Shown: positions 3,833 through 60,240, numbered from the stretch's first letter. The stretch: 64,000 bases of DNA from Clostridia bacterium (GCA_017461475.1 JAFTXX010000003.1:43171-107170), one strand, 5' to 3'. The notes: a model not told the origin generated them from the letters alone. Numbers and translations are program-made.

Positions 3833-3845
3833 CAGGAGAAACAGA

Positions 3846-18528: not shown

Positions 18529-18556
18529 GGGGTACCATCCGTAAGGATGGTACCCC
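18529..18556 (+). terminator. Strong hairpin after the 666-aa gene
   Basis: ggggtaccatcc-gtaa-ggatggtacccc. The following T-run is weak. Confidence 0.5.
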
Positions 18557-18663
18557 GGTTATATTCGCCTGCGGCGAGTGATATTGCTTTGCAGTGATAT
18601 ACGGCTTTGCCGTGTGGTATTCGGTTACGCCGAGTTTTTAGGCGAATATCACTTACAAACGAT

Positions 18664-27190: not shown

Positions 27191-27204
27191 ACTAAATGAA
27201 CTTA

Positions 27205-27415
27205 ATATTCACACAGAGTGTCGGGTAAGCCGCAAAGGCTCGCTCGGTGAAAAGGGAACGTGGTGCGAATCCACGACGATACCAGTCGCTGTATACATCC
27301 GAATGTTTTTGTGCTCGTCGGCGAAAGCCGGTCATTGGGAAACTGAGAAGGCAGAGTATGAAAACGCGGGGCAATGCGCCCTATAGGATGTGAGTCAAAA
27401 GACCTGCTCTGATGT
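27205..27415 (+). promoter_or_regulatory. Cobalamin (B12) riboswitch aptamer
   Basis: Core ggtgaaaagggaacgtggtgcgaatccacg...cagtcgctgta, then gccggtcattgggaaactgagaaggc, and a B12-box-like gagtcaaaagacctgct. The 5' cagag and 3' ctctg can close P1. Confidence 0.8.
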
Positions 27416-27525
27416 TGCTCCGTCCGTGTGTTTTACATAGGAGCAATAGTTTTGTTTGGCACTATCATGGCTTTTGATAGGCTTTGTTGCGTTGCCTTGC
27501 AAAATGTGTAAGACACAGAAAAACT

Positions 27526-27568
27526 CTGCTGTGGTAATTTTTAAAAATTACCGCAGCTTTTTTGTTTG
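27526..27568 (+). terminator. Intrinsic terminator (riboswitch expression platform)
   Basis: gctgtggtaattttt / aaaaattaccgcagc stem (one G-U pair) followed by ttttttg, 50 nt before the ATG at 27619. Confidence 0.75.
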
Positions 27569-27618: not shown

Positions 27619-30600
27619 ATGAAACTCAAAAAAATTGTATCGTTACTACTGAGTATGGTAATGATGCTAAGTATGTTGCCGATTACTATTGGTGCAGCAG
27701 AATTACCGATTAACGGTAACAAATTGGACATTGCCGACCAACAAGTCGGCCCATTCACCTTGCAGTATCTAGAAGTATATTTGCAAGAGTCTTATTTACC
27801 TGTATCTATCGTCAGCGCCGAGCAAAACGGCACTACGATAGACATTGCTCTGTCACCGGATACCGACCCGTCGGCAATGCTGCAGGCAGGCTTTGGCGGC
27901 ACAGGTATGGCCACTTTGTCTCATAGTAACAATAAATGTACTTTGTCTGACGGAAACGGAACCATGACTTGTTCGGTTACCGCATTTCAAGGACGGCCGG
28001 TTGCCGGTGCAAGCTTTACCATTAACTTTAGTCTGGCAACACCGGCAGGACCTGCCGTAAAGTTTACCTCAAACCTTTCCGAAGCAGAAGCGGTATATGT
28101 ACAGGGCAAACCCGCAACGCCCATAACGGTTTCTGCAGAGTACGTTGGCGGTGAAACCGAAGAAAACGTAACTTATCAGTGGTACAAAAACTCCGAAAAG
28201 AGTAACGTAGGCGGAATAGCAATAGACGGTGCAACTTCGAACAGATACACTCCTGCAACCGATGAAATCGGCATTGCCTATTACTATGTAACAGCCTCGT
28301 GCGAGGGCTTGAGCGCAACAAGTAAAATTGCGACAGTTACCGTAGAAGCCCCCGAAGTCAAATTTACATCCAATCTTAATGAAACCGAAATTAAGTGCAC
28401 TCAGGGCAAAGATGTTCCTGCTCTTACAGTAGCCGCAGAGTACACAGGTGTAACCGATAACGCCGTAACGTATCAGTGGTATTCAAATACAACCAAGAGT
28501 ACAGAGGGCGGCACTCTTATCGAAAATGCAACAGATGCAAGCTATACTCCCGCTTCCGATAATGTAGGAACTACATATTATTACGTTGTAGCTACTTGCG
28601 AAGAAAAGAATAGCGCAAGTAAAATTGCAACTGTTACCATAGAGGAGCCGATAGTAAAGATTACAAGCGACCTTGATGAAGAGGAAAAGTTCTGCATTTT
28701 CGGCAAGAGTGCTCCGAATCTTGCAATATCGGCGGAGTATACCGGAGTTACAGAAGAAGTCATTACATATCAGTGGTATTCAAATACAACCAAGAGCACC
28801 GAGGACGGTACGCCTATTGATAATGCAATCGAGGCAAGCTATACTCCTAAAACCGACGCATTGGGTACAACCTATTACTATGCGGTTGCATCTTGCGAAG
28901 GGAAGTCAGCCGTAAGTGCCATCGCTACGGTTACGGTAGAAGCAGACCTTTCACCCGAAAGCGGCTTGTGGCTTGGCATTGAGACATCCAATGGCAGTGT
29001 AAACTTTGTAAAATTCACCGATGCAAACGGCGAAAAAATCGATGGGCTCTATTCCGAACTTGACGGTACAAAAATAACAGTTACTTTGCCGCGAAGCTAT
29101 GGCGCAAACGAAAAAGTCACCGCCGACTTTAATTTGACACAGACTGCGACAAATGATGGAAAATTACCGTTCATTTCAGGCAGTAATGCATTTAATCAGG
29201 GCGTAGGAAGCACTACGGCATACACAGTAGCTCTTGCAAGCGGAAGAGCAACAAAGACGCTGTATCTTTATAATTCCAAGCCCCGCGCAACGAATAACAA
29301 TCCTGCTGTTTACATTATAAGCTATGCAATAGCCAATGAAATTCCCGCACTGGCTGACGGGCAGAATACAGAAGGAACTGCTGAGATCGTTGCAGGCAAT
29401 GCATACACGCTTGACCTTGCACCTGTTTTTACGGATGCTGACGGAGATGCTCTCACTTACAGCGTCAAGATAAACGGTGAAGCGGCAGTAGCGGCAGATG
29501 TAAATTACAGTTTTGCTCCTACACTCGGCGGAACATATACGCTTGAATTTTTTGCAAACGACTTCATGTCCGCTTCCGAGCAGTCGTATACGGTTACACT
29601 TGATGTAATAAATTCTACCGTAACATACGATATGTCCGTTTTGCTTCCGAGTGATATAGCTCCCGCATTTTATATCACAAACGGTTATGATAGCGGCACT
29701 GATGTTCTCGGTGACACACTTGTATTTGTGTCAGGCGAGACGGCAGACGGATATATTCCTTACACCGTTTCTGTCCCCGAGAATATTTCCGAAATTTCTG
29801 TAAGAGATGCCGCATACGGCGGCATGGCAATACCTGCTGCAAGTGAAAGCACCGTAACGCTTCAAAAGGTAGAAACGGAAATCATAGACTTTAGCGATAA
29901 AGAAATTTCGGGTACTGTCAGCGTTTCTTACGGCGAGAAAAAAGCCGTAGGTGTTGACGGCAAATTCCTGCTTGTACCGCAAAAGGAATATAAGTTTACG
30001 GCATCTCCCGAAAACACCTCAATATATAGTGCAAAAACAGAAACACTCACTTTAACCGAAGAAATCACCGCTGTAACCGTTAAAGTACCGTATAAAAACC
30101 CTAAAACGATCATTACTACCACGGGGGCAACCGCAAAAATGTTCAAGTATGCGGGTAACTATCATGTGCATACCGTATATGAACCTCTTGCAACCGTGGA
30201 AAACGGAAACGGCACCTCCACGCATTATTTCAGCGTAAGCGGAGATATCAGCTACCGTGTTTCAATGGAAGGCAAAATCACGAAGGCTGGATATCTCAAA
30301 ACTGGCAATTCTGTAACAGTGCTTCACAGTGAAGCGGACAAGCTCCCCACCGACAGAGTTGACTATACCACCGTAGGCACAAATGCCGCCGAGGTCGGTG
30401 ATGACAGCGTCCTTCTGGGTATCAATCAGCAAAACCATCTTTCTTTGTTGCTTGGTGCAACAAAAACACTCAAAGCATACAGAACATGGCAGATTATCGA
30501 CCTAAGTTACAATAACCACATTATTGAACCCGATTTCAGTTTTAATATAATTTCGGGTGAAGACGTTGTCAGCCTTGCGCCTTATGAGAATCAGCCCACA

Positions 30601-33093
30601 ACCAACGGCAGCGGAAACTGGCGAAAGCTTACTGCTATCGGAGAGGGTACTGCGGTTGTCGAGGTCACCTACGATGCTATCGACATCAGCGGCGGTTCGT
30701 ATAACGGCTTTTACGGTGCGGCAGATCCTGCAAGAACAGGACTTTTTATAGTTACCGTTGGTGAAAATGTTCCTGACGTTGATTTTGGCATAGACTGCAA
30801 AACCGGTGCCGACAGTATGGTTTATACTCCCTCGAATGCAAAGCCTTGGGACGCGGAGTTTGATACGCTCTACTTCCTTGGCGAAAGCGGAGAAATCAAG
30901 CTTTCCCCCACATTTGCAGATGGTAATATAACCGAGGTTGCAGTATCGGGCGATAAGGGTGAAAGCTATACCGTTCTTGAAGAAACCGACGGAGTTTATA
31001 CCGCACCTATTATATCTGGCAACAATATCATTCGTGTTACCACAGATAAAGGTATAGCATATCAGATAGTTCGAGGCGATAAAGTTGAACTTGCGATTAA
31101 GAACATTACAAATCCCGGTAAGCCCATATCTGCCGGCGATGAGATAAGCCTTACACTTATCGGTGTACACACACCTATACCGAAAATTGCAGGCACCTAC
31201 AATCCCGGATACAAAAACAACATGGACGGCGATGGCGGAGTACATCTCCATTACAGTTTCGGCGACGATACCATTAAAAGTGAGGGCAAGCAATACAACT
31301 TCTCATTGTATGGCACTACTGTAAAGTTTACTGTTCCCGCGGATAGCGAAGAAACCGAATTTACGCTTACAGACGGTTATATCGGTGTGGGCGTAATAGG
31401 AGTTACTACTTTCCCGAATGACGGAGAAAGCCACCGAAATATTCCCGATGCCGGAGGCACTACAAGAGGAAGCACAACTACATTCCACACACGTAGTCTG
31501 CTTCCGGACATTACAGTCAAAGTAGGTATGCTCCCGAGCGGCAATACCGCACCCTTTATCCGTGAAAATGCACCTAAGACCGCCACTTTGAATCTCGGCG
31601 GAACATATGCTCTCAGTATGTCGAAGGTTTTCACAGACCGCGAAAGTGACACTCTCACCTACACCGCGAAAGTCGGTAACGGCGAAGCTTCTTTGGTAGC
31701 GGATGCGTATTATACATTTACTCCCGACTCAGTTGGCACATGTACAATAGAGTTTACAGCAAATGACGGCACAGTGGACAGTGATATACACACTGTAACA
31801 CTTTATGTTAAAGAAAAACAAAGCACTTCCACGTCGTCAATTGAATTTGACATTGATGAAGATGATATTGCCGGCTATGTAAAAGTAAGCTTTGCGGACA
31901 AAGGAAAGCGCGTTGAGGGTGAAGAGAATATAACCTACCCGAAGGCGCTTGGTACAATCATTTCAACAAAACGTGTTCCTTTTGCAGACGGCGACACCGT
32001 TGCAGACGTCACTCTCCGTTTACTTGATGCGTACGGGTTTACATACGAATACACCGGAACAACAAAGGATGGCTTCTACCTTGCTTCAATTGGTGGTTTT
32101 ACACTTAAAGGCATAAGCTATGATTCGTTCGGCGAATTTGATGCAGGTACAGGCTCGGGCTGGATGATTACACTTAATAATGATTTCATTGAGTACGGAG
32201 CGTCCGAGTTTGAAGTAGCAAACGGTGATGTAATTAAATGGCAGTATACCTGTCAGCTTGGTTCAGACATTGGTGATCCATTCTATTCCGACTCATCTTC
32301 TTCCGAAAGCTCAACAAACACCTATACAGTTAAGTTTGAAACAAACGGCGGAAGTGCTGTAAGTAATCAAAAGGTTGACAAAAATGATACCGCCACAGAA
32401 CCCGAAGCACCTACCAAGGACGGCTATACCTTCGGCGGTTGGTACACTGACAAGGAACTGACCAAAGAGTATGATTTTGACACCAAGGTTACAAAGAGCT
32501 TTACACTGTATGCGAAGTGGACGGAAAAAGCTTCGGCAGACGAAAATCATTTCAGTGACATCGGCGAAAACGATTGGTACTACCTCTATGTACAGTATGT
32601 ATACGAAAACGGACTTATGCAGGGCACCGATGACGGTTTTGAGCCAGACGGCAACATGACAAGAGCTATGCTTGTTACCGTGCTGTACAGACTTGACGGC
32701 GCGGAGAACGGCAAAGACGGTTGCAGATTCACGGATGTTGCAGAGGGCGAGTGGTACGCGGACGCTGTTGCATGGGCAAATGAAAACGGCATCGTCGTTG
32801 GCATCAGCGAGACAGAATTTGCACCGAACGACAACATCACTCGCGAGCAGATGGCGGCTGTAATCTATCGCTATGCAAAGTTCAAGGGATATGATGTCAG
32901 CGACAAAGCAGACATTTCTGACTTTGCAGACGCGGATGAGATAAGCGGGTATGCACTCGACGCACTTGCGTGGGCAAATGCAAATGAACTTGTAAAGGGC
33001 ACTACGGACACAACCGTATCGCCTAAAGGCACGGCTACGCGTGCGCATGTAGCGGCCATCCTCATGCGCTTTTGCGAGAACATAGCAAAATAA
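27619..33093 (+). CDS. 1,824-aa SLH-anchored multidomain surface protein: Ig-like YQWY repeats, cadherin-like modules, a DUF4430-like module, a Listeria-Bacteroides-type repeat and 3 SLH
   Basis: AAAGGAGAA RBS and signal peptide MKLKKIVSLLLSMVMMLSMLPITIGAAE. Three tandem ~99-aa repeats. FTDADGDALTYS and FTDRESDTLTYT modules. GSGWMITLNN...NGDVIKWQYTCQLGSDIG. YTVKFETNGG...GYTFGGWYTD. Three canonical SLH repeats at the C-terminus. Confidence 0.9.
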   Translation: MKLKKIVSLLLSMVMMLSMLPITIGAAELPINGNKLDIADQQVGPFTLQYLEVYLQESYLPVSIVSAEQNGTTIDIALSPDTDPSAMLQAGFGGTGMATLSHSNNKCTLSDGNGTMTCSVTAFQGRPVAGASFTINFSLATPAGPAVKFTSNLSEAEAVYVQGKPATPITVSAEYVGGETEENVTYQWYKNSEKSNVGGIAIDGATSNRYTPATDEIGIAYYYVTASCEGLSATSKIATVTVEAPEVKFTSNLNETEIKCTQGKDVPALTVAAEYTGVTDNAVTYQWYSNTTKSTEGGTLIENATDASYTPASDNVGTTYYYVVATCEEKNSASKIATVTIEEPIVKITSDLDEEEKFCIFGKSAPNLAISAEYTGVTEEVITYQWYSNTTKSTEDGTPIDNAIEASYTPKTDALGTTYYYAVASCEGKSAVSAIATVTVEADLSPESGLWLGIETSNGSVNFVKFTDANGEKIDGLYSELDGTKITVTLPRSYGANEKVTADFNLTQTATNDGKLPFISGSNAFNQGVGSTTAYTVALASGRATKTLYLYNSKPRATNNNPAVYIISYAIANEIPALADGQNTEGTAEIVAGNAYTLDLAPVFTDADGDALTYSVKINGEAAVAADVNYSFAPTLGGTYTLEFFANDFMSASEQSYTVTLDVINSTVTYDMSVLLPSDIAPAFYITNGYDSGTDVLGDTLVFVSGETADGYIPYTVSVPENISEISVRDAAYGGMAIPAASESTVTLQKVETEIIDFSDKEISGTVSVSYGEKKAVGVDGKFLLVPQKEYKFTASPENTSIYSAKTETLTLTEEITAVTVKVPYKNPKTIITTTGATAKMFKYAGNYHVHTVYEPLATVENGNGTSTHYFSVSGDISYRVSMEGKITKAGYLKTGNSVTVLHSEADKLPTDRVDYTTVGTNAAEVGDDSVLLGINQQNHLSLLLGATKTLKAYRTWQIIDLSYNNHIIEPDFSFNIISGEDVVSLAPYENQPTTNGSGNWRKLTAIGEGTAVVEVTYDAIDISGGSYNGFYGAADPARTGLFIVTVGENVPDVDFGIDCKTGADSMVYTPSNAKPWDAEFDTLYFLGESGEIKLSPTFADGNITEVAVSGDKGESYTVLEETDGVYTAPIISGNNIIRVTTDKGIAYQIVRGDKVELAIKNITNPGKPISAGDEISLTLIGVHTPIPKIAGTYNPGYKNNMDGDGGVHLHYSFGDDTIKSEGKQYNFSLYGTTVKFTVPADSEETEFTLTDGYIGVGVIGVTTFPNDGESHRNIPDAGGTTRGSTTTFHTRSLLPDITVKVGMLPSGNTAPFIRENAPKTATLNLGGTYALSMSKVFTDRESDTLTYTAKVGNGEASLVADAYYTFTPDSVGTCTIEFTANDGTVDSDIHTVTLYVKEKQSTSTSSIEFDIDEDDIAGYVKVSFADKGKRVEGEENITYPKALGTIISTKRVPFADGDTVADVTLRLLDAYGFTYEYTGTTKDGFYLASIGGFTLKGISYDSFGEFDAGTGSGWMITLNNDFIEYGASEFEVANGDVIKWQYTCQLGSDIGDPFYSDSSSSESSTNTYTVKFETNGGSAVSNQKVDKNDTATEPEAPTKDGYTFGGWYTDKELTKEYDFDTKVTKSFTLYAKWTEKASADENHFSDIGENDWYYLYVQYVYENGLMQGTDDGFEPDGNMTRAMLVTVLYRLDGAENGKDGCRFTDVAEGEWYADAVAWANENGIVVGISETEFAPNDNITREQMAAVIYRYAKFKGYDVSDKADISDFADADEISGYALDALAWANANELVKGTTDTTVSPKGTATRAHVAAILMRFCENIAK
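28051..28944 (+). repeat. Three in-frame tandem repeats of ~298 bp inside the giant gene
   Basis: Units start at 28051, 28351 and 28648. Each encodes P.VK(F/I)TS.L.E.E....GK......(V/I).AEY.G.....VTYQWY.N..KS..GG..I..A..(N/A)(R/S)YTP..D..G..YYY....CE......S.IATVT(V/I)E. Confidence 0.9.
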
Positions 33094-33156
33094 CTTATAG
33101 GGATTGCGAACAGCCGCTATGGCTGCTCGCTTTTCCCGTTTTAGAAAGGGTATACG

Positions 33157-34716
33157 ATGAAGAAGATATTTTCACTCTTGCTGTGTCTGCTAATGTTTGT
33201 CAGCACGGTTTTACCTGCCTTTGCCGCGGAGAGTGACACAGTTTCCGACGTCGCGGCGTATGTATACAAAACTGTGGCTTCACCGCAGGTCGGCTCTGTC
33301 GGCGGTGAGTGGGCGGTGCTTGGACTTGCACGCGGCGGTGCGGATATCCCAAGCGAATACTATGCCGATTATTATGCAAACGTTGAGGCGTATGTAAAAG
33401 AGTGTAAAGGCGTTTTGCATACAAAGAAGTATACCGAGTATTCGCGCGTGATACTTGCGCTGACCGCAATAGGCAAAGACCCCTCAAATGTTGCTGGGTA
33501 TGATTTGATCGCACCGCTCGGCGACTTTGATAAAACTGTATGGCAGGGGGTAAACGGCGCGATATTTGCGCTGATTGCCCTTGACAGCGGCGATTATGAA
33601 AGTGACCTTCGCGAAAGGTATGTTGATTATATTTTGCAAAAACAACTCGCCGACGGCGGTTTTGCGCTCTCGGGCGAGAGTGCCGATGCCGATGTTACCG
33701 CTATGGCGCTGCAGGCGCTTGCAAAGTATAAAAATAACGCTGCGGTTAAAACAGCAATAGAAAAAGCACTCCTTTGCTTGTCCGAAATGCAAAACGCAAG
33801 CGGCGGTTTTTCAATCAGTGGAGAGGAAACCGCCGAGAGCGCGGCGCAGGTAACAGTCGCGCTTTGCGAGCTCGGTATTTCTCTTGACGATACACGCTTT
33901 GTCAAAAACGGCAATACCGTGCTTGACAATTTGATGACCTATTATGTCAATGGAGAGGGCTTTAGACATACGCATAGCGGCGGCACAAATCAGATGGCAA
34001 CAGAGCAATGCTTTTACGCGCTCGTTGCCGCCGAGCGTTTGGCAAGCGGCAAAAACAGCCTCTACTGCATGAGTGATGCGGCAAATCTTGTGGGTGACGC
34101 CGCAGGTCTTGCAGGCAAGCACGCCGATGTTAATGTAAAGCCGATAGTCGCCGTAAAAACATTTGCAGACATCAAAGGTCACAAAAATCAATCAGCAATA
34201 GAGGCGCTCGCGTCAAGAAAAATAATCAACGGCAAAAGCGATACATCGTTTGAACCAAGTGCAACGATGACACGCGCAGAGTTTGCAACGATAGTGGTAA
34301 ATGCACTCGGACTTCCTCGTCAAAGCAAAGCGGTGTTTGCGGATGTCACGGGCGGCGATTGGTACTACAGCTACATCAATACCGCGTATGCTTACGGCAT
34401 TATCAAGGGCGTATCAGACACCGAGTTTAACCCAGGCGGCACTATAACGCGCGAAGAAGCGGCAGTCATGGTAGCACGCGCGGCAAAGCTGTGCGGTATG
34501 GACACCGATTATACCGCGTATGAAGCGCGCAATATCCTTGCAGGATTTTCCGATTATGTAAAGGCGTCGGAATGGGCATATAGCTCGCTTGCATTTTGCT
34601 ATGATAAAGGCGTTTTGGACGACAGCGCCATGTCGATACAACCGAAAGCTGCCGTAACGCGCGGAGAGATCGCACAAATGCTTTACAATATGCTTTCGCT
34701 GGCAAAGCTTTTATAA
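33157..34716 (+). CDS. SLH-anchored protein with a prenyltransferase/squalene-oxidase-type alpha/alpha-toroid domain
   Basis: Signal peptide ..PAFAAE. Repeats of the type GGEWAVLGLARGG, QGVNGAIFALIALD, QLADGGFALSG, QNASGGFSISG. Three SLH repeats (FADIKGH.., FADVTGGDWYY.., FSDYVKASEWAY..). Confidence 0.8.
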   Translation: MKKIFSLLLCLLMFVSTVLPAFAAESDTVSDVAAYVYKTVASPQVGSVGGEWAVLGLARGGADIPSEYYADYYANVEAYVKECKGVLHTKKYTEYSRVILALTAIGKDPSNVAGYDLIAPLGDFDKTVWQGVNGAIFALIALDSGDYESDLRERYVDYILQKQLADGGFALSGESADADVTAMALQALAKYKNNAAVKTAIEKALLCLSEMQNASGGFSISGEETAESAAQVTVALCELGISLDDTRFVKNGNTVLDNLMTYYVNGEGFRHTHSGGTNQMATEQCFYALVAAERLASGKNSLYCMSDAANLVGDAAGLAGKHADVNVKPIVAVKTFADIKGHKNQSAIEALASRKIINGKSDTSFEPSATMTRAEFATIVVNALGLPRQSKAVFADVTGGDWYYSYINTAYAYGIIKGVSDTEFNPGGTITREEAAVMVARAAKLCGMDTDYTAYEARNILAGFSDYVKASEWAYSSLAFCYDKGVLDDSAMSIQPKAAVTRGEIAQMLYNMLSLAKLL

Positions 34717-34725
34717 GGAGAACGG

Positions 34726-35370
34726 ATGAAAAAACATATCAACAAGATCATAGCGGCTGTACTTGTCCTTGCGGTTTTGGTATTTGTATTTTGGTGGGGC
34801 GGCAATGCACCGAGCCTTCGCGGCTTCGGCAATGCCGAGGAGACGACAGCCGATACCGCCGTAACCGACAAGTACAAAACAAATACCGTGCCAGAGGATA
34901 AACCTTCTCCCGTCGAACCCGAGGACGCGGTCATTTCGGACAGGGAACTTACCTGTACGCTTTCGGTGCGGTGCGATACGATTTTGGATAACTTAAACTG
35001 GCTCGACCCCGAAAAGGTAGAGCTTGTTCCCAAAGACGGCGTTATCTACGCTGAAAAAACGGTCACATTTTACGAGGGCGAAAGCGTGTTTAATCTGCTT
35101 GTACGTGAGATGAAGCAAAATAAGATTCACATGGAGTTTGTCAATACCCCCATCTACAATAGCGCTTACATTGAGGGAATCGGCAATCTCTATGAATTTG
35201 ACTGCGGCGAGCTTTCGGGTTGGATGTACAAGGTGAACGACTGGTTCCCGAACTACGGCTGCTCGCGCTATCAGCTTTGCGACGGCGACAAAGTCGAATG
35301 GGTATATACATGCGACCTCGGCGAAGATGTCGGCGGCGGATATTCCTCGGGAGTACAAAAGGATGAATGA
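34726..35370 (+). CDS. Membrane-anchored DUF4430-like protein (transcobalamin beta-domain-like)
   Basis: N-terminal TM IIAAVLVLAVLVFVFWW. C-terminal LSGWMYKVNDWFPNYGCSRYQLCDGDKVEWVYTCDLGEDVG. Confidence 0.75.
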   Translation: MKKHINKIIAAVLVLAVLVFVFWWGGNAPSLRGFGNAEETTADTAVTDKYKTNTVPEDKPSPVEPEDAVISDRELTCTLSVRCDTILDNLNWLDPEKVELVPKDGVIYAEKTVTFYEGESVFNLLVREMKQNKIHMEFVNTPIYNSAYIEGIGNLYEFDCGELSGWMYKVNDWFPNYGCSRYQLCDGDKVEWVYTCDLGEDVGGGYSSGVQKDE

Positions 35371-36250
35371 GTTTAAGACATACCATCCGATTGTTAACTT
35401 TGCTTATTTTGCATTCGTTATCGGATTTTCGATGTTTTATATGCACCCCGTATGCCTTGCCGTCACGCTTGCAAGCGGCTTTGTCTATTCGGTAATGCTC
35501 AAAGGCCCAAAAGCGATAAAAACAAATCTTTTGTATATGCTGCCGACAATGCTTATAACGGCGCTTATGAATCCTGCGTTTAACCACGAAGGCGTGACCA
35601 TCCTCACATATCTGCCGAGCGGCAATCCGCTCACGCTCGAGTCGATATTGTACGGTCTCTCGGCGGCGGTGATGATAGTCAGCGTGATGTGTCACTTTTC
35701 GTGCTACAACGCCGTTATGACAAGCGATAAATTCATCTATTTGTTCGGTAGAGTGATTCCGTCGCTGTCGCTGATACTTTCCATGACGCTTCGCTTTGTG
35801 CCAAAATTTACGTCACAGCTTAAAGTGGTAACAAACGCACAGAAATGCATCGGGCGAGATGTTTCAAACGGCTCGCTCTTGCAGAGAGCGAAAAACGGCA
35901 TTTCCATACTGTCTGTAATGGTTACATGGTCGCTTGAAAATGCGGTAGAGACAGCAGACAGCATGAAGTCGCGCGGCTACGGTATGCGTGGGCGCACCGC
36001 GTTTTCGATTTTTAGATTTGACAAGCGGGACGCGGCGGCGCTTCTTTGCATTTCGTTTTTGGGAGTTTATGTGCTTGTCGGCGGTGTTGCGGGCGGTATG
36101 GATTTCAGATATTTTCCGTCTGTAAAAGCCACAGAACCGACTATATATACTGTCAGCATTTTTGCGGCATATTTTGCGCTGTGCGCATTGCCGATAGCGG
36201 TTGAAGTCTTAGAGGTGAGAAAGTGGAAAGCTATAAGATCCAAAATTTAA
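35363..36250 (+). CDS. ECF transporter transmembrane (T) component, CbiQ/EcfT family
   Basis: ATGAATGA start/stop overlap with the previous gene. About 5-6 TM segments. C-terminal ..VETADSMKSRGYG.. (conserved Arg-Gly coupling-helix-like motif). Confidence 0.8.
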   Translation: MNEFKTYHPIVNFAYFAFVIGFSMFYMHPVCLAVTLASGFVYSVMLKGPKAIKTNLLYMLPTMLITALMNPAFNHEGVTILTYLPSGNPLTLESILYGLSAAVMIVSVMCHFSCYNAVMTSDKFIYLFGRVIPSLSLILSMTLRFVPKFTSQLKVVTNAQKCIGRDVSNGSLLQRAKNGISILSVMVTWSLENAVETADSMKSRGYGMRGRTAFSIFRFDKRDAAALLCISFLGVYVLVGGVAGGMDFRYFPSVKATEPTIYTVSIFAAYFALCALPIAVEVLEVRKWKAIRSKI

Positions 36251-38661
36251 GTTTTACATATCCCAACCGCGCGTGTGCGGCACTCGTTGACATAAACCTT
36301 ACTGTCAATGAGGGTGAATTTGTCACTCTGTGCGGCAAATCGGGTTGCGGAAAAACAACGCTTTTGCGCCTGCTCAAAACTTCGCTTGCGCCGCACGGCA
36401 AGCTTTGTGGCAGTATCGATTTCTGCGGTACATCACTTGCTGACACGGATGCAAGAACACAGGCTTCCAAGATAGGCTTTGTCATGCAGAGCCCCGATAA
36501 CCAAATCGTGACCGATAAGGTGTGGCACGAACTTGCGTTTGGACTTGAAAGCCTCGGATGCCCCACCCCCGAGATACGCACACGCGTGGCTGAGATGGCG
36601 TCATTTTTCGGAATCCAAACATGGTTTCACAAAAGCGTGACCGAACTTTCGGGCGGTCAAAAGCAGCTTTTAAATCTCGCTTCAGTCATGGTTATGCAGC
36701 CGTCAGTGCTTATTTTGGACGAGCCGACAAGCCAACTTGACCCCATAGCCGCCGAAGAGTTTTTGAAAACGCTCGAAAAAATAAATCGCGAACTTGGAAC
36801 AACGGTGATATTGTCTGAGCACCGCTTGGAAGATGCGTTCCCTATATCCGACCGCGTTGTCGTTATAGACAGCGGCAGAATAATTGCGGATGCCGAGCCG
36901 AAGAAGGTCTGCGAGATCTTAAAAACAACAAGGCACGATATGTATGCCGCTTTGCCCGCACCGATACGCATTTACGGCGCTGTTGAGACCGATGCTGCAT
37001 TTCCGCTCACGGTTCGTGAGGGTAGAGGGTGGTTTTTGAAATATGCCGAGACGCATACGCCGAAAACGGACGCAATATTGCCCGAAAACAAGCCGCTTGC
37101 GACCGAGACGGCAGTTGAAATAAATGACGCATGGTTCCGCTATGAAAAAGAACTTCCCGATGTCATAAAAGGTCTCAGCCTAAAGGTGCAAAAAGGGGAA
37201 CTGTTCGCCATCCTCGGCGGCAACGGCACGGGAAAAACCACTGCGCTTTCACTAATAAGCGGTCTTAACACGCCGTATCGCGGAAATGTGCTCATAAAAG
37301 GTAAGTCTGTCGCAGATATCGCCGACTTGTATAACGGTACTCTCGGCGTGCTTCCTCAAAATCCGCAGTGTTTGTTTACAAAAAAGACCGTGCGCGCAGA
37401 CCTTTTTGAAATGACAAATAACGCAGAGCATATTCAAAACATAGCAGAGATCTGCAAAATAGCAGAACTGCTCGACAGCCACCCATACGACCTTTCAGGT
37501 GGTGAACAGCAGCGCGCGGCACTTGCCAAAGTGCTTTTGCTTTCGCCGAGAATTTTGCTGCTCGACGAGCCGACCAAAGGTATGGATGCGCAGTTCAAGG
37601 CGTGCTTTGCGGATATTCTGCAGGATTTAAAGGCAAACGGCGTTACTGTCATAATGGTGTCGCACGATATTGAATTTTGTGCCGAGCATGCCGATAGATG
37701 CGCGATGTTTTTTGACGGCAATATTGCATCAGTAGGCACACCGCGTGAGTTCTTCGCAGGCAAAAACTTTTATACCACCTCTGCCAATCGAATCGTGCGC
37801 GAAAAACTGCCACGCGCCGTGACCGCCGAGGATGTGATACTCGCTCTCGGCGGCAAAGTTGAAAAAAGAGAGCGTGTCCCAAGGCGCATAATTCCGCATG
37901 AAAAAAAAGAGCAACCCCAAAAAACGTTCAAAGAGAATATCCAACAACCGCAAAACAACCGCCGCTTAACGGGGCGCACCCTCGCAGCAATGCTTTTGAT
38001 ACTGCTCGTAATACCGCTCACAATTTTTGTCGGCATTGTCTATCTCGGCGACAGAAAGTATTATTTCATAAGCCTGCTCATCATCCTTGAAACCATGATA
38101 CCGTTTTTCATGGTGTTTGAGGGCAGAAAACCCAAGGCACGCGAACTCGTCGTGATAAGCGTGCTGTGCGCTATAGGCGTAGCAGGCAGAGCCGCGTTTT
38201 TTATGTTGCCGCAGTTCAAACCCGTAACGGCGCTTGTCATTATAGCGGGTGTATGTTTCGGCGGAGAAACAGGATTCCTCGTCGGTGCGGTAACGGGCTT
38301 TGTCTCAAACTTCTTTTTCGGACAAGGTCCGTGGACTCCGTGGCAGATGTTCGCTTTCGGAATTATCGGCTTTATAGCGGGAGTGCTGTTCCGCAAAGGT
38401 ATCTTGCGCAAGACAAAAATATCGCTCTGTATCTTCGGATTTATTGCAACGCTCATAATTTACGGCGGAATAATGAATACCGCATCCGTGCTTATTTGGC
38501 AGGCAACACCCAAAGCCCAAATGTTCCTCTCAGCAAGCACTGTGGGACTGCCGTTCGACCTTATCCACGCAGCATCCACCGCCTTATTCCTATGGCTCGC
38601 CGCAGAGCCCATGATCGATAAGCTCGAAAGAATAAAAGCCAAGTACGGTTTGATAGAATAA
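36223..38661 (+). CDS. Fusion protein: two ECF-type ABC ATPase domains + a C-terminal multi-TM S-component-like domain
   Basis: GTG start overlapping the T gene. Domain 1: GKSGCGKTT, LSGGQKQLLNLA, ILDEPTSQLD. Domain 2: GGNGTGKTT, LSGGEQQRAALA, LLLDEPTKGMD. From ~nt 37930 there are six hydrophobic segments (..GQGPWTPWQMFAFGIIGF..). Confidence 0.85.
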   Translation: MESYKIQNLSFTYPNRACAALVDINLTVNEGEFVTLCGKSGCGKTTLLRLLKTSLAPHGKLCGSIDFCGTSLADTDARTQASKIGFVMQSPDNQIVTDKVWHELAFGLESLGCPTPEIRTRVAEMASFFGIQTWFHKSVTELSGGQKQLLNLASVMVMQPSVLILDEPTSQLDPIAAEEFLKTLEKINRELGTTVILSEHRLEDAFPISDRVVVIDSGRIIADAEPKKVCEILKTTRHDMYAALPAPIRIYGAVETDAAFPLTVREGRGWFLKYAETHTPKTDAILPENKPLATETAVEINDAWFRYEKELPDVIKGLSLKVQKGELFAILGGNGTGKTTALSLISGLNTPYRGNVLIKGKSVADIADLYNGTLGVLPQNPQCLFTKKTVRADLFEMTNNAEHIQNIAEICKIAELLDSHPYDLSGGEQQRAALAKVLLLSPRILLLDEPTKGMDAQFKACFADILQDLKANGVTVIMVSHDIEFCAEHADRCAMFFDGNIASVGTPREFFAGKNFYTTSANRIVREKLPRAVTAEDVILALGGKVEKRERVPRRIIPHEKKEQPQKTFKENIQQPQNNRRLTGRTLAAMLLILLVIPLTIFVGIVYLGDRKYYFISLLIILETMIPFFMVFEGRKPKARELVVISVLCAIGVAGRAAFFMLPQFKPVTALVIIAGVCFGGETGFLVGAVTGFVSNFFFGQGPWTPWQMFAFGIIGFIAGVLFRKGILRKTKISLCIFGFIATLIIYGGIMNTASVLIWQATPKAQMFLSASTVGLPFDLIHAASTALFLWLAAEPMIDKLERIKAKYGLIE

Positions 38662-39707: not shown

Positions 39708-40991
39708 ATGTCTAACTATAAATTTGAAACTTTACAGCTCCATGTAGGTCAGGAAAATCCCGATCCCGCAACCGATGCCCGTGCGGTACCGATTTACGCA
39801 ACCACTTCTTATGTATTCAAGAACTCTGCTCACGCCGCGGCTCGTTTCGGTCTCGCCGATGCCGGTAACATTTACGGCAGACTTACCAATTCCACACAGG
39901 ATGTCCTAGAACAGCGTGTAGCAGCTCTTGAAGGCGGCGTTGCTGCTTTGGCTCTCGCTTCCGGTGCTGCAGCAATTACATATACCCTTGAGGCACTCGG
40001 TCAGAATGGCGGTCACTTCGTGGCACAGAAGACCATTTACGGCGGTAGTTACAATCTGCTGGCACATACTTTACCTAACTTCGGTATTACCGCAAGTTTT
40101 GTCAACATTCACGACCTCGCCGAAGTCGAAGCGGCTATTCAGGATAACACCAGAGCGATATACATTGAAACCCTCGGTAACCCCAACAGCGATATTCCGG
40201 ATATCGACGCACTGGCTTCTCTTGCTCACAAGCACGGTTTGCCCCTCGTAGTAGACAACACCTTCGGTACGCCGTACCTCATCCGTCCTATCGAGCACGG
40301 CGCGGATATCGTGGTACATTCCGCTACCAAGTTTCTCGGCGGTCACGGTACCACACTGGGCGGCGTGATCGTAGACTCCGGTAAATTCGATTGGACTGCA
40401 AGCGGCAAGTATCCAGCAATCGCCGATCCCAATCCCAGCTATCACGGCGTATCCTTTGTGAAAGCAGTCGGTCCTGCGGCGTTTGTAACATATATCCGCG
40501 CTATCCTGCTCCGTGATACCGGTGCTACCATTTCTCCTTTCGCCGCATTCCTGCTCTTACAGGGCATCGAGACTCTGTCTCTACGTCTGGAGCGTCATGC
40601 TGAAAATACCAAGAAGGTTGTCGAATTCCTTGCAAACCACCCGCAAGTTGAAAAGGTCAATCATCCGTCTTTGGCAGATCACCCCGACAACGAGTTGTAT
40701 CAGAAATATTTCCCCAATGGTGGCGGTTCCATCTTCACTTTTGAGATCAAGGGCGGCGTGGCTGAGGCACACAAGTTCATTGACAGCCTGGAAATCTTCT
40801 CTTTGCTCGCCAATGTTGCTGATGTAAAGAGCCTTGTGATCCACCCGGCAACCACCACACACAGTCAGCTTAGTGCTGAGGAGCTTGAGGATCAGGGCAT
40901 TAAGCCCAACACCATTCGTCTTTCCATCGGTACCGAGCATATCGACGATATTCTCGCCGATCTGCAGCGTGGTTTTGACGCAGTAAAGTAA
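39708..40991 (+). CDS. metY: O-acetylhomoserine sulfhydrylase (aminocarboxypropyltransferase)
   Basis: N-terminus [44 protein letters not shown] carries the PLP-binding Lys. 427 aa. Confidence 0.9.
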
Positions 40992-41016
40992 TCGAATCTA
41001 TTTGGAGGTAACATTT

Positions 41017-41949
41017 ATGGCTAATATTTATACATCTGCCGATCAATTGATTGGCAAAACACCTCTCCTTGAACTTACACACATTGAAAAAGCCTTAGGA
41101 TTGAAAGCAAAGGTCGTCGCTAAACTGGAATATTTCAATCCGGCAGGTTCCGTTAAAGACCGTATTGCAAAGGAAATGATTGACGAGGCGGAGGCGAGCG
41201 GAAAGTTGAAGCCCGGTTCTGTTATCATCGAGCCCACCTCCGGCAATACCGGTATCGGTCTTGCGGCGGTTGCTGCTGCCCGCGGCTACAGAATTATTAT
41301 CGTAATGCCCGAAACAATGTCGGTGGAACGCCGTCAACTTATGAAGGCATACGGCGCGGAGCTTGTACTGACCGAAGGTGCTAAAGGTATGAAAGGTGCT
41401 ATTGCAAAGGCGGAAGAACTCGCCGCAGAGACACCCAACAGCTTCATTCCCGGACAGTTTGTAAACCCCGCCAACCCCAAGGCTCACAGAGAAAATACCG
41501 GTCCTGAGATCTTTGAGGATACCGACGGTAATGTGGATATCTTTGTTGCGGGTGTAGGCACCGGCGGTACGGTAACAGGTGTCGGGGAATATCTGAAATC
41601 CAAGAACCCTGCAGTCAAAGTCGTTGCAGTTGAGCCTGCCGCTTCTGCGGTGCTCTCTACCGGTGTTGCCGGTCCTCACAAGATCCAAGGTATCGGCGCA
41701 GGCTTTGTTCCCGATGTACTCAACACCGGCATTTATGACGAGATCATTCCCGTTTCAAATGAGGATGCTTTTGCTACCGGAAAGCTCATCGGCAAAAGTG
41801 AGGGCGTACTCGTAGGCATTTCTTCCGGTGCTGCCGCATTTGCCGCAATTGAACTCGCAAAGCGACCCGAAAACGAAGGAAAAACCATTGTTGTGCTTCT
41901 GCCCGATACCGGTGACAGATATTTATCCACACCGCTGTTTGCTGATTGA
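41017..41949 (+). CDS. cysK: Cysteine synthase A (O-acetylserine sulfhydrylase)
   Basis: GGAGG RBS before the ATG at 41017. [28 protein letters not shown] and GVGTGGT motifs. Confidence 0.9.
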
Positions 41950-42016
41950 TCATCAAGGCTCCGGTACTATTTACTGTATCGGAGCCTTTAGACTTGTTTA
42001 TTGTAGGTGATTTGAA

Positions 42017-42190
42017 ATGTTTGATAACTCACTTTTCAATTCAATCTATAGCCGAACAGATACCGGAGCAATTAAATACAATAATCTTCCTCCAAATACG
42101 ATTCATATGTGGATTGCAGATATGGGTTTCAAATCCCCTCCGGCAGTTACAGATGCGCTCACAAAAGCCGCTTACAAGTACGGCGAATAA
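42017..42190 (+). pseudogene. 57-codon N-terminal remnant of a PatB/MalY-type C-S lyase
   Basis: MFDNSLFNSIYSRTDTGAIKYNNLPPNTIHMWIADMGFKSPPAVTDALTKAAYKYGE* aligns with the N-terminus of the intact paralog at 53332 (..FDSVIDRRNTNSLKY....VLPLWVADMDFRAAQSVLDALHTAV). It stops after 57 aa, against ~390 expected. Confidence 0.55.
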
Positions 42191-42219
42191 ATTATGCAGT
42201 TAATAAAACGGAATGACTT

Positions 42220-43266
42220 ATGAGAAACATCGATTTAATTGAGAAACTAACGGCAGAGAGAAATCTTCCGAATGCGGCGCTAAAATTGCTGATTGAAAGC
42301 AATGAATACGATACGTTTCTCTTCGAAGCGGCGGATAGCAGACGCAAGGAAATCTACGGCGATGAGGTTTACATTCGCGGACTTATTGAGTTTACAAATT
42401 ATTGCCGCAATAACTGTTATTATTGCGGCATACGAAGAGATAATAAAAATGCACAGAGATACCGTTTAAGCAAAGAAGAAATCCTTGCTTGTTGTGAAGA
42501 AGGATATCGGCTTGGTTTTCGTACTTTTGTTTTACAGGGCGGTGAAGATCCGTATTATACAGACACTTTAATCTGTGATATTGTGTCTGAAATACGAAAA
42601 CGTTTTGAGGATTGTGCTATCACGTTATCTCTCGGTGAAAAATCCAAAGAAAGCTATAAAGCGTTCTTTGATGCGGGAGCTAATCGCTATCTGCTTAGGC
42701 ACGAAACCGCAAACGATCCGCACTATCGTAAGCTTCATCCTGACAATATGAGTCTGCAAAACCGAAAACAATGCCTATATAATTTAAAGGACATCGGATA
42801 TCAAGTGGGTTCCGGTTTTATGGTTGGCTCGCCATATCAGACAACCGATACTTTGATACAAGATATTCGTTTCTTGCAGGATTTGCAGCCTGATATGATC
42901 GGAATCGGACCGTATATCACGCATGAAGACACACCGTTCTCTTCTTTTAAAAACGGCAGCATGGCGCTGACTTTACGGCTTATTGCTGTTTTGAGGCTTA
43001 TGTTTCCGTATGCTTTGATTCCGGCAACGACGGCTCTCGGAACGATCCACGCTCAGGGACGTGAACTCGGGTTGAAAGCAGGCGCCAATGTGGTAATGCC
43101 CAACCTTTCGCCGGTCGGTGTACGAAAACTATATGCGCTTTATCAAAATAAAATATGCACCGGAGAGGAAGCTGCACAGTGCCGGGGTTGTCTGGAACGG
43201 CGCGTAAACTCTGCCGGATACCGTATTGTAACGGCAATCGGGAATGCAATGAAGGAGAATAAATAA
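42220..43266 (+). CDS. hydE: HydE-like radical SAM protein
   Basis: IRGLIEFTNYCRNNCYYCGIRRDN, LQGGEDPYY, TLSLGE, RYLLRHETAN, MVGSPYQT, MIGIGPYITHEDTPF, IPATTALGT, GANVVMPNLSP. 348 aa. Confidence 0.75.
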   Translation: MRNIDLIEKLTAERNLPNAALKLLIESNEYDTFLFEAADSRRKEIYGDEVYIRGLIEFTNYCRNNCYYCGIRRDNKNAQRYRLSKEEILACCEEGYRLGFRTFVLQGGEDPYYTDTLICDIVSEIRKRFEDCAITLSLGEKSKESYKAFFDAGANRYLLRHETANDPHYRKLHPDNMSLQNRKQCLYNLKDIGYQVGSGFMVGSPYQTTDTLIQDIRFLQDLQPDMIGIGPYITHEDTPFSSFKNGSMALTLRLIAVLRLMFPYALIPATTALGTIHAQGRELGLKAGANVVMPNLSPVGVRKLYALYQNKICTGEEAAQCRGCLERRVNSAGYRIVTAIGNAMKENK

Positions 43267-43384
43267 AACGCAGATATATCTTGATAATGCAGCGACCACA
43301 AAAATGAGCAAAACAGCAATAGACGCTATGATTCCCTCGGCGGCGGAACGATCATTGCCGGATAACTTTGTAAAGGATTCAATT

Positions 43385-44263
43385 ATGAAACTGACAGAAC
43401 TCTTTAGCAGAAATCAATTATCGCTTTCTTTTGAGGTGTTCCCTCCAAAAAACGAAACAACTTTTGAAAGCGTAAAGCACGCGACGGAAGAGATTGCGAG
43501 ACTGCATCCTTCGTTTATGAGTGTTACATACGGTGCCGGTGGTGGGACAAGCCGATACACTCTTGACATCGCAAAACAAATCAAAGATCTGTATGATGTT
43601 CCCTCTTTAGCGCATTTGACCTGTGTTTCCTCCACAAGGGAAACTGTCCGCGAAAGAATTAGGGACATTAAAAGTGCGGGCATACAGAATGTTATGGCTT
43701 TGCGTGGAGATATCCCCACAGAACTTCAAAATGCAGACCGCAGTCATTGGGATTTCAGGCACGCAATAGAGCTTATTTATGAATTGAAAGAATCAGGGGC
43801 GGATTTTTGCATCGGCGGGGCATGCTATCCCGAAATTCATCCCGAGAGTACAAATCAAAAAGAAGATATTCTGCATCTTAAGGAAAAAGTGGATGCAGGT
43901 TGTGAATTTTTGACGACGCAAATGTTCTTTGACAATAATCTTCTGTATAACTTCCTGTATAAGATCCGTGAAGCCGGAATAACCGTTCCTATAATTCCCG
44001 GTATTATGCCTATTACCAATGCAAATCAAGTAGAAAGAGCGATAAAACTTTCCGGCTCCTTTATGCCCCAGCGATTCAAGAGTCTCGTAGACAAATTCGG
44101 TTCTGACCCTGCGGCTATGAAACAGGCGGGTATTGCGTATGCTACCGATCAGATCATTGATTTGTATGCAAACGGTATTACGGGTGTCCATGTCTATTCT
44201 ATGAACAAGCCGGATGTGGCAGCGAAGATTCAGAGCAATTTGTCAGATATTTTGGGCAAATAA
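43385..44263 (+). CDS. metF: 5,10-methylenetetrahydrofolate reductase
   Basis: AAAGGA RBS before the ATG at 43385. LSFEVFPPK, SVTYGAGG, AHLTC and ALRGD motifs. The track ORF start at 43304 lies in a nifS-like remnant with no RBS. Confidence 0.85.
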   Translation: MKLTELFSRNQLSLSFEVFPPKNETTFESVKHATEEIARLHPSFMSVTYGAGGGTSRYTLDIAKQIKDLYDVPSLAHLTCVSSTRETVRERIRDIKSAGIQNVMALRGDIPTELQNADRSHWDFRHAIELIYELKESGADFCIGGACYPEIHPESTNQKEDILHLKEKVDAGCEFLTTQMFFDNNLLYNFLYKIREAGITVPIIPGIMPITNANQVERAIKLSGSFMPQRFKSLVDKFGSDPAAMKQAGIAYATDQIIDLYANGITGVHVYSMNKPDVAAKIQSNLSDILGK

Positions 44264-56203: not shown

Positions 56204-59200
56204 ATGAAAAGACGTATTGCGTATGTTTTTGCGATTGTACTGCTTGCGCTTGTGTTTTCGTTTGCTGTTTTTGCATCGGACGACGGCGCAAACTGTATGT
56301 ACTGCGGCGCATATCGCTACGGCGATTGGCTTTGCGACTGCGGACTTTGCAGTATAGAAGCCGAGCCTGCGGATTGCTGGGCAGCTACGCACTGTTGGGA
56401 ATGCGGCGCTTGCTTTAACACAATGACAAAGTTTTGTGTCGAGTGCCATTATTGTGAAGAATGCTACGTAGCAGAGGGTACGCACTGCCTTGGTTGCGAG
56501 GAGTGCCACATTTCCGACTATCAGGATGAGCTTTGCGGCGAGTGCTGGTTTTGCGCTGACTGCATGGGCGGACTTTGCGACGGTTGCGGCTTTTGTGCGG
56601 GATGCCAGGAGCTTGACGGTGGCGTGCATTGCCCCGAGTGTGGAGGTTGCTACGGCGAGTACGGTGCATGCGAGGAGGATGGAGCAGAGCATTGCAAGGA
56701 GTGCTGCCTTATCTGTGAGCAGTGCGAGCGATGCGTTTTTGACGACGGACTTGAACTTTGCTCGGAATGTAACTTTTGCGAGGAGTGTTGCAGACATGCG
56801 GCACAGAGCGAGGGCTGCGACTGCGGCGAATACTGCGTGGAGTCGAGCGATTGGTACGACCACGTCTGCCTTAATTGCGGAACTCCTTACTGTCAGATAG
56901 ACCAGTGTGACCTGTGCGAGCTTTGCCTTGACTGTTGCGAGTCGAACTCCGATTGCTCGGAGGGACTTTGCGTCATGGACGATGAATATGATTATCATTT
57001 CTGCGAGGATTGCGGAATTTGCTTCCACGAGGTTGACGCTTGCGAGGATTGCGGAGACGCGGGCGAGCTTCGCTGCGAGGATTGCTCCGCCGCTATTACC
57101 GAGGACGCGGGCTGCGACTGCAGCGATATGTGCTTTAACATGGCGGGGTTTGACACCCACGTAGCAACCGAGCACAAGGGCGCGGACGGCAGCCATACCG
57201 CAAAGCCGCAAAAAACATGGACTTACGACATGAACTATCACTGGAGGGATTGCTCTCTTTGCAGTGAAGCGGCGCATATAACCGTAAAGGAAAAACACGC
57301 ATTTGACTATTTCGGCATTTGCGCTGTGTGCGGATTTGACTCCAAAACCAAAATTGTTATTCTCCGTCAGCCGAATAGCCGCATAGTAGAGGTGTCGGAT
57401 AATGATGCGGGAGCAGGCGAGCCGTATAACATCGAGGACAATCAGGTTTCGTTTTCGGTAGCGGCGGTGGGGACGGGCACGCTTACCTACCAATGGTACG
57501 AAAAGCGCGGCATGTCCGAGTGGAAACCTATGAAAGACGAAATGAACTACTTTGTCGCAAACAGTAAGTTCTACACGGTCTACGGCACAAAAACAGACAG
57601 ACTCACGATTGCGGTTCCCGTGGACGTGTGCTATACCGAATACGCATACCGTGTGGTGATCACCGATGCCGAGGGCAACACGGTGACGAGTGCGGCGGCG
57701 CAGATCGCCTCCAAGCACATCTACAAAAAGGCAATTGCACATAAGGGTGCGCTTATCGGCACGATCCGTCAGTCAAACAAGAGCGATAACATCGGCGTTT
57801 ATGCAACAAACGGTCATTACATCCTTTGTCAGGGCGACGGTTGCGAAGCCGAAAAGATTGTTTCTCACAACTACGGCAAGGGCGTGCGTGAATACGTCGA
57901 TAATACCGATTACAGCGTTTGGACCGAGTTTGTGTGCAAGGATTGCGGATTTGTAAATTATATCAAAAACCATGACCACTACTTCTACGATCCCGAAAGC
58001 GGAGAGTGCGAGGTGGACTATACATACAAAAATTCAGTAAATCACCGCTTAAAGTGCCTCTATCCTGATTGTGAAAAGACAACGCTTGAAGCACACGTCT
58101 TTATGCCATGGGGCAATCACGGCACACCGCACACTGCAAGCGGCGGTGTCGGCATTGCGTTTAAGGAATGCGCACTTTGTGCTTATTCTTACACGAAAAA
58201 GCCCCAGTATTTTGACTTTGTCAAGGAGGAGAACATTACTACCGACTGGACAAAGGCAAATGACCTCGTGTATGTACGCTACGGATTTGCAAGCGGAGAT
58301 ATTTACACAGTCGGCGACAGCATGTACATCACCTTTGCACCGACTGTTACGGATAAGAGAGACCACATAAAAATGACCAATCCGAAGTGTGTCGGCTGGA
58401 AGGTATTTTACAGTGGTAACAATGTTTCGGATATAGACGTTACAAGTGCCTGCACCTTTGAAAAGCTAGAGGGTGAGGCAAAATGGGTAGTGAAGATTTC
58501 AAAATTCCTGACCCATACGGGCGGCGGCACATTTGCCTTCGTTCCTACTATAGATACAAAAGAGTGTGAGCATATAAATGGCTCAAGGATTTTCGGTGCA
58601 TACAAGCCGATCTGTACGACCGACGGCTACACGGGTGACCGCAAGTGTGTGGACTGCGGCTACGTTGTGCAGTACGGTGAAGCCATACCGGGCGGTGAAG
58701 AGCATGCAGGAGAGCTTAAACTTGTAAGCGGTACTTCGAGAAATGGCACTTGTGAGCAGCGTGGCTACGAGGGTGACTACAAGTGTTCCCACTGCGGTGC
58801 AAAAGTGAAGGGCAAGACCACGCCTAAGGTGCACACGGGCAAAACCACCGTGAAAAATGCAAAGAAAGCAACCTGCACATCCTTTGGCTACACGGGCGAC
58901 ACATATTGCTCCTGCGGAGCCATGATAAAAGAGGGCGACCTTATTGTTCCCACGCACAGCAATATTGTAACACTTAACTACAAAGAGGCAACCTGTAAAA
59001 ATGACGGCTACAGCGGTGATATGCAGTGCAAGGATTGCGGTATCTTCGTCCGCTACGGTCACACTGTCAAGGGCGGCGAGCATGCATGGTCAGACTACAA
59101 GGTGCTTGATGCGGTAAATCACAAGTGTTATTGCAAGGTAAGCGGCTGTAACGAGATCATGACCGAGGCGCATACCGATGCGGACAGAAATCTCGTCTGC

Positions 59201-60217: not shown

Positions 60218-60240
60218 ATCAATTAAAAGGGAGCAAAATT

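Follow-up and report, generated by a model that had tools for sequence, protein, structure and literature searches.

A transcobalamin-like SLBB clade was defined in bacteria by Burroughs, Balaji, Iyer and Aravind in 2007, on computational grounds only (PMC1796856). The secreted or surface beta-grasp proteins of transcobalamin (TC) type described there may stand alone, form part of large multi-Ig proteins, or be fused in either order to alpha/alpha toroids; a second paralogous SLBB protein is often encoded in the same operon, and there is linkage to CbiO/CbiQ-like genes, which encode ECF-type (energy-coupling factor) ATPases and T components. B12 scavenging was predicted for these proteins, and animal TC was proposed to have been acquired from Gram-positive bacteria. 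In L. sakei, the locus lsa1836-1840 encodes two secreted proteins, the TC beta-like Lsa1839 and the alpha-like Lsa1840, beside EcfS, a fused EcfAA' and EcfT, and a Lsa1839-Lsa1840 heterodimer handing its ligand to the S component was proposed in 2019 (Verplaetse et al., bioRxiv 10.1101/864751). Here, a five-gene operon was analyzed in a stretch of 64,000 nucleotides from a Clostridia bacterium (GCA_017461475.1 JAFTXX010000003.1:43171-107170), referred to as the window, with positions counted from its first letter. The locus is read as a B12-repressed corrinoid-uptake operon of a Gram-positive bacterium bearing surface-layer homology (SLH) proteins, with a capture and relay mechanism included; the probability of this reading as a whole is put at about 0.7.

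Operon organization, riboswitch and ECF transporter

The five co-oriented genes form a single transcription unit on the + strand (27.2-38.7 kb) and are tightly spaced, with gaps of 63 and 9 nt and otherwise overlaps. They encode, in order, a giant surface protein, a toroid-SLH protein, a small DUF4430 protein, EcfT, and an EcfA-EcfA'-S fusion. A cobalamin riboswitch aptamer (RF00174) at 27201..27425 on the + strand matches the full-length model with 59.8 bits (gathering score 31.5; E 2.7e-12). An intrinsic terminator (27528..27567, +) is situated between this aptamer and the first start codon; it consists of a 13-bp stem (GCTGTGGTAATTT/AAATTACCGCAGC) followed by the T-run TTTTTTGTTT, which likely serves as the expression platform of the riboswitch. 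The tools thus show a predicted B12-dependent regulation of the operon, with riboswitch and terminator upstream of all five genes. A weak hairpin (CAGCCGCTATGGCTG) with a T-rich tail was also seen at 33111-33125, within the 33094-33156 gap between the giant and toroid genes; it may act as a partial terminator or processing site that sets the level of the giant protein apart from that of the core genes.

Related loci were surveyed in 80 genomes, comprising Clostridia metagenome-assembled genomes, Flavonifractor plautii, Intestinimonas, Butyricicoccus, Pseudoflavonifractor, Lawsonibacter, Sporobacter, Sedimentibacter, Vallitalea and several Paenibacillus. A cobalamin riboswitch was found upstream in five of seven related loci tested with Rfam, and with a nucleotide profile seeded from the Rfam hits (nhmmer), at least 49 of the 80 loci were seen to have a same-strand copy upstream, many of the remaining loci being on truncated contigs. 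Five loci (L010, L042, L049, L076 and L032) have either two cobalamin riboswitches in tandem ahead of the operon or additional ones before neighboring genes.

The T component is encoded at 35363..36250 (+). It has 295 aa, or 307 aa if translation begins at ATG 35327, scores 29.1 bits with CbiQ (cut-off 25) and matches the EcfT structures 5D3M/6FNP (E 8.5e-14). Its start codon overlaps the stop codon of the DUF4430 gene (ATGAATGA). The last gene (36223..38661, +) encodes the fusion, a protein of 812 aa with two ABC_tran domains and an ECF_trnsprt match of 44 bits. Its ATPase domains score 338 bits with ECF_ATPase_1, above the cut-off of 315, and 310 bits with ECF_ATPase_2, just below the cut-off of 330. 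By hydropathy, about two additional transmembrane helices follow at ~aa 581-634, and the remainder (~aa 640-812, nt 38140-38658, +) is a CbrT-like S component, whose best PDB match is CbrT itself (6FNP chain A, E 6.5e-9 over 170 aa; next PDB match E 0.2). CbrT has been shown experimentally to import cobalamin and cobinamide, and hemin is no competitor (PMC5997447). With an EcfT, a pair of EcfA domains and an S component, these two genes make up a dedicated ECF set of CbrT type, whose T and A parts are typical ECF components and for which ATP-driven transport of cobalamin is predicted.

The placement of A, A' and S on a single polypeptide is conserved in 56 of 59 related loci. Such a fusion would fix a 1:1 stoichiometry and keep the S component from leaving its module, a point relevant to models with dissociating and exchanging S components. 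No earlier description of A-A'-S fusions was found in literature checks.

The first-pass annotation of the window had proposed a role in B12 binding from the proteins alone, and the operon context, which it lacked, strongly supports a link of the system to B12 through the cobalamin riboswitch and the CbrT-like S component. The same two features speak to whether heme or another tetrapyrrole, rather than a corrinoid, is the imported ligand, as was proposed for L. sakei lsa1836-1840. There, heme uptake was the interpretation given to deletion and complementation data, and docking placed heme between the alpha-like and the beta-like protein (bioRxiv 10.1101/864751). Against a heme ligand here, a cobalamin riboswitch is present at the locus and in most relatives, and the S part is nearest to CbrT, with whose B12 transport hemin does not compete. 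Heme import is therefore considered very unlikely for the present operon.

Two DUF4430 modules as transcobalamin-type beta domains

The giant SLH-anchored surface protein (1824 aa; 27619..33093, +) starts at ATG 27619, with the ribosome-binding site AAGGAG and a signal peptide. The mechanical open reading frame (ORF) begins at TTG 27562, and gene callers on identical metagenome contigs give the protein of 1824 aa. Pfam assigns to it Ig-like, Big_9, DUF4430 and Flg_new domains and three C-terminal SLH repeats. The DUF4430 module, a TC-like beta (SLBB) module by the evidence given below, lies at 31948..32286 (+; aa 1477-1563) and matches PF14478 with 43.7 bits (E 3.8e-11) and the family hidden Markov model (HMM) with E 7.5e-16. 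It is followed by a Flg_new repeat (32323-32517, +; E 1.3e-22) and by the three SLH repeats of the cell-wall anchor (32536..33090, +; SLH E 5.7e-34, in three stretches). The beta module directly precedes the SLH anchor and should therefore be positioned at the same level of the wall as the toroid.

The second module is carried by a membrane-anchored protein of 214 aa (34726..35370, +), which matches PF14478 with 61.0 bits (E 1.5e-16). Both modules are above the Pfam cut-off for this family (23.8 bits), and they are 33% identical over 109 aa (E 7e-19). The common signature noted in the first-pass annotation is present in both translations, as GSGWMITLNN...CQLGSDIG at ~nt 32152-32274 within the giant ORF and as LSGWMYKVND...CDLGEDVG at ~nt 35212-35334 in the 214-aa ORF. 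A permissive six-frame HMM scan of the window, giant protein included, returned no third DUF4430 and no second toroid. The small protein has an N-terminal hydrophobic transmembrane helix (aa 2-27), a linker, and a beta domain at ~aa 66-203, so that only ~40 residues separate the helix from the domain.

In an AlphaFold2 (AF2) model of the 214-aa protein, a helix at the N-terminus is followed by a disordered linker and a beta-grasp-like domain; the mean predicted local distance difference test score (pLDDT) is 71, with 83-95 in the core. When this model, the only one of the two modules to be modeled, was compared with the PDB using Foldseek, the 17 best matches were all TC, intrinsic factor (IF) or haptocorrin (HC), with E values from 9e-6 to 3e-4. 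Template-modeling (TM) scores against the isolated human TC beta domain (5NP4, 5NO0) were 0.70-0.74 (TMt), and the DUF4430 crystal structure 3U7Z ranks right after the 17 carrier matches. Sequence comparisons point in the same direction. In a profile search with a trimmed, diverse DUF4430 domain alignment, HC and the TC beta domain came first among PDB sequences, at an E value of only ~0.015, and hhalign aligned DUF4430 with the HC beta-domain segment at 88.6% probability, pairing the invariant bacterial Y...G...GW...GD.V.W.Y with PYITCIQGL...YW...GENLEVRW of HC. Searches of PDB sequences with the single DUF4430 protein sequence or its full-length profile gave nothing useful, the latter because the variable linker dominated the profile. 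Taken together, sequence and model strongly support the assignment of both DUF4430 modules as TC-type beta (SLBB) domains, with corrinoid binding as the predicted activity.

Among 56 homologues of the 214-aa protein, the membrane helix and a juxtamembrane motif, FWWGGNAPxLRG (34726-34830, aa 1-35), are nearly invariant, as is the domain, while the linker after the motif ranges from 0 to ~150 residues. Since the helix and motif are nearly invariant while the linker varies, the anchor may make a contact of its own; the pattern suggests a specific one, perhaps with the transporter. Five cysteines are conserved in the extracellular beta domain, three (C77, C83, C196) without exception and two (C160, C179) nearly so; the module of the giant protein retains only the equivalent of C196. 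These residues may form disulfides or ligate cobalt. Cobalt ligation by a cysteine occurs in BtuM.

The toroid and its partnership with DUF4430

Between the two beta-domain genes, a secreted protein of 519 aa with a signal peptide is encoded at 33157..34716 (+). Its toroid domain spans ~nt 33229-34146 and its C-terminal SLH region ~nt 34150-34713 (both +). The first-pass annotation had described it as a toroid tethered by three SLH repeats, and this description is upheld. The repeats that it quoted (GGEWAVLGLARGG, QLADGGFALSG and QNASGGFSISG) are found in the translation of the 519-aa ORF; AF2 models an all-helical ring with high confidence (pLDDT 93; predicted TM score, pTM, 0.90); and the SLH region (E 3.6e-33) aligns end to end, over aa 334-508, with the three-SLH domain of Bacillus anthracis Sap (3PYW). 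The three products are accordingly separate and differently anchored, as the annotation had stated: a toroid held at the wall by SLH repeats, a beta domain anchored in the membrane, and a further beta copy in the SLH-anchored giant protein.

The best Foldseek matches of the toroid model in the PDB are class II terpene cyclases (E 8e-6), followed by prenyltransferase beta subunits and glycoside hydrolase (GH) toroids. These matches raise the possibility of an extracellular enzyme, of terpene-cyclase/prenyltransferase type or a glycoside-hydrolase-like toroid, that was merely co-opted into the operon. The Pfam scores are just below the cut-offs, however, both for Prenyltrans (25.3 bits against 26.5) and for SQHop_cyclase_C (18 bits against 26.1), and the DxDD motif of class II cyclases is absent from the toroid protein, the family having DxD(I/V/M/T)TA in the equivalent position. 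Secretion and wall anchoring also place the protein away from isoprenoid diphosphates, and the frequency of DUF4430 fusion in its family (62% of representatives, see below) likewise speaks against an enzyme. Of the alternatives considered, this one is given the smallest chance.

The toroid family is large, with 6698 representatives at 50% identity (E <= 1e-3). Among the 150 nearest representatives, 93 (62%) carry a DUF4430-like module on the same chain, and these chains are often giant, with two or three toroids. A spacing of less than 80 aa between the domains was seen in the beta-to-alpha order in 33 proteins and in the alpha-to-beta order in 28. In the surveyed relatives, 59 loci extend far enough downstream for the gene order to be judged, and 56 of them keep the order toroid-SLH, small DUF4430 protein, EcfT and EcfAA'-S. 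A large DUF4430 protein adjoins upstream in at least 37 of 65 loci, and a toroid occurs in eight of these large proteins as well. The operon family is very common in Clostridia, in Oscillospiraceae (including cultured Flavonifractor, Intestinimonas and Butyricicoccus) and in Paenibacillus. These data support the toroid family as a habitual partner of DUF4430. The toroid is tied to B12 because of its same-chain fusions with DUF4430, the conserved gene order and the upstream riboswitches.

How the two halves would work together is modeled on the behavior of split transcobalamin. Separately expressed TC alpha and beta domains need cobalamin in order to co-elute; the beta domain alone binds cobalamin (Cbl) and cobinamide (Cbi), and splitting TC lowers its affinity (PMC5599065). 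By analogy, we infer that the toroid and a beta module form a corrinoid sandwich, followed by hand-over to the membrane beta domain and the S domain. When B12 is scarce, the operon would be transcribed, and a corrinoid would be caught in the wall zone by the toroid and one beta module as a ligand-induced sandwich. Lower affinity and reversible binding would be expected, as the halves are not covalently linked. From there, the beta module near the membrane would receive the vitamin and hand it to the CbrT-like S component, with the ATPases driving the inward step.

Several observations weigh against this reading. The fold is confidently modeled as an (alpha/alpha)6 ring, which appears generic rather than specifically transcobalamin-like. 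TC (2V3N) ranks only 25th among Foldseek matches of the model (E 1.1e-3), but with a TMq of 0.58 it belongs to the matches with higher TM scores. A diverse profile of the toroid family retrieved SLH proteins, squalene-hopene cyclases (1e-13) and the TED domain of alpha2-macroglobulin from the PDB and reached no TC, IF or HC chain, so that homology to the TC alpha domain could not be shown at the sequence level with this profile. No Cobalamin_bind match to the toroid was obtained in Pfam at E <= 0.01. In the searchable literature, no demonstration of corrinoid binding, of a complex or of transport was found for any bacterial member of the family, and the sole mutant study of a homologous split system, that of L. 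sakei, argued for heme and not B12 (bioRxiv 10.1101/864751). The TC-like fold proposed in the first-pass annotation is therefore supported for the beta half, with its 17 top carrier matches; for the alpha half, the model shows the right class of fold without showing a specific likeness to TC. The fold class and the association with DUF4430 weakly support the toroid as the alpha half of a TC-like device.

The generic character of the toroid would also fit a locus with the same transporter and regulon but without a TC-like sandwich, in which the beta modules alone bind corrinoid. The toroid would then do another job at the wall, such as acting as a scaffold, recognizing lower-ligand variants, or stripping B12 from carriers of the host or of competitors. 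Binding of Cbl and Cbi by the TC beta domain alone (PMC5599065) is consistent with this arrangement, as are the lack of a specific TC signal in the toroid and the presence of one toroid against two beta modules in the operon. That toroid and DUF4430 are often fused through short linkers, whichever of them comes first, and that the two are adjacent in 56 of 59 loci favors a joint unit instead, and an arrangement lacking the sandwich is judged unlikely.

A more specific form of the sandwich-and-relay reading has three tiers. At the wall, a ligand-induced, reversible sandwich would be built from the SLH-anchored toroid and the giant protein's beta module, and the membrane beta protein would belong to the transporter as a fixed part. 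Its invariant FWWGGNAPxLRG anchor would dock on the two extra helices of the A-A'-S fusion, and the protein would there receive the vitamin from the complex at the wall and deliver it to the CbrT-like S domain. A relay of this kind would be a Gram-positive counterpart of BtuG-BtuB-BtuF and a living relative of the ancestor of the animal B12 carriers. This version is possible but, on present evidence, rather doubtful.

Genomic surroundings and comparison with known systems

A cluster related to sulfur amino acid and one-carbon metabolism lies directly downstream of the operon (39708-44263) and encodes a Cys/Met pyridoxal phosphate (PLP) enzyme, a PALP enzyme, a radical SAM protein and MTHFR. 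No cob/cbi or metH genes were seen in the scanned ORFs of the window, from which alone B12 auxotrophy is not inferable. Elsewhere, a Gut-1 RNA (RF01706) was found at 18556-18625 (+; 53.8 bits against a gathering score of 50), just 5' of an ABC-transporter ATPase gene at 18781. Four further SLH-anchored surface proteins, one with a GH43 domain, are encoded at 110-5906 and 56204-61740; the organism therefore uses SLH anchoring widely. An NCBIfam match named 'NEAT domain-containing' was considered as evidence of heme binding and rejected: it covers only the SLH part of the model, so no NEAT domain is present.

Capture of B12 before the membrane step in Gram-positive gut anaerobes appears to be experimentally uncharacterized, and the present operon family offers a riboswitch-marked, well-defined experimental target. 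The gain would be one of confirmation, as the concept is already in the literature. ECF transporters are normally thought to need no binding protein. Corrinoid binding by the split alpha/beta pair would show an ECF transporter using extracytoplasmic binding proteins; it would also put the 2007 prediction to the test and bear on a Gram-positive bacterial origin of the animal B12 carriers.

The split-transcobalamin reading is plausible, but it had already been described by Burroughs et al. and in the work on L. sakei lsa1836-1840, and the novelty of the split arrangement implied by the first-pass annotation was overstated (PMC1796856; bioRxiv 10.1101/864751). What PMC1796856 does not single out is the split pair of SLH-toroid and membrane beta protein, the riboswitch or the A-A'-S fusion, all of which are present here. 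SLH tethering, riboswitch and A-A'-S fusion are local features of the present locus within a known kind. The operon shares with that of L. sakei separate alpha-like and beta-like proteins adjoining ECF genes. In L. sakei, however, heme is the ligand claimed, the S component forms a protein of its own, and no SLH anchors or giant protein were described. In the case of the transporter, the S part is a clear sequence relative of that in ECF-CbrT of Lactobacillus delbrueckii (6FNP; PMC5997447). CbrT is a free S component that uses a shared, general ECF module, and no extracytoplasmic binding proteins were included in its study, whereas here the S component is fused to the ATPases and its module is dedicated.

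Two further comparisons concern capture at the cell surface and the carriers of animals. In terms of function, an analogue is BtuG, which has an unrelated fold, that of a beta-propeller lipoprotein, and belongs to the Gram-negative outer membrane. Surface capture by BtuG shapes competition for B12 in Bacteroides. The BtuG/BtuB system of Bacteroides, reportedly described by Wexler et al. in 2018, is said to capture B12 at the surface by means of a riboswitch-controlled surface protein placed ahead of a membrane transporter. In terms of structure, there is a likeness to mammalian TC, IF and HC, which have the same beta-domain fold and an (alpha/alpha)6 toroid as its partner. The animal carriers are single soluble chains, alpha followed by beta; their affinity is sub-picomolar, and they enter cells by receptor-mediated endocytosis. 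In the present operon, by contrast, the toroid and DUF4430 are on separate, separately anchored gene products that would feed an ABC-type importer.

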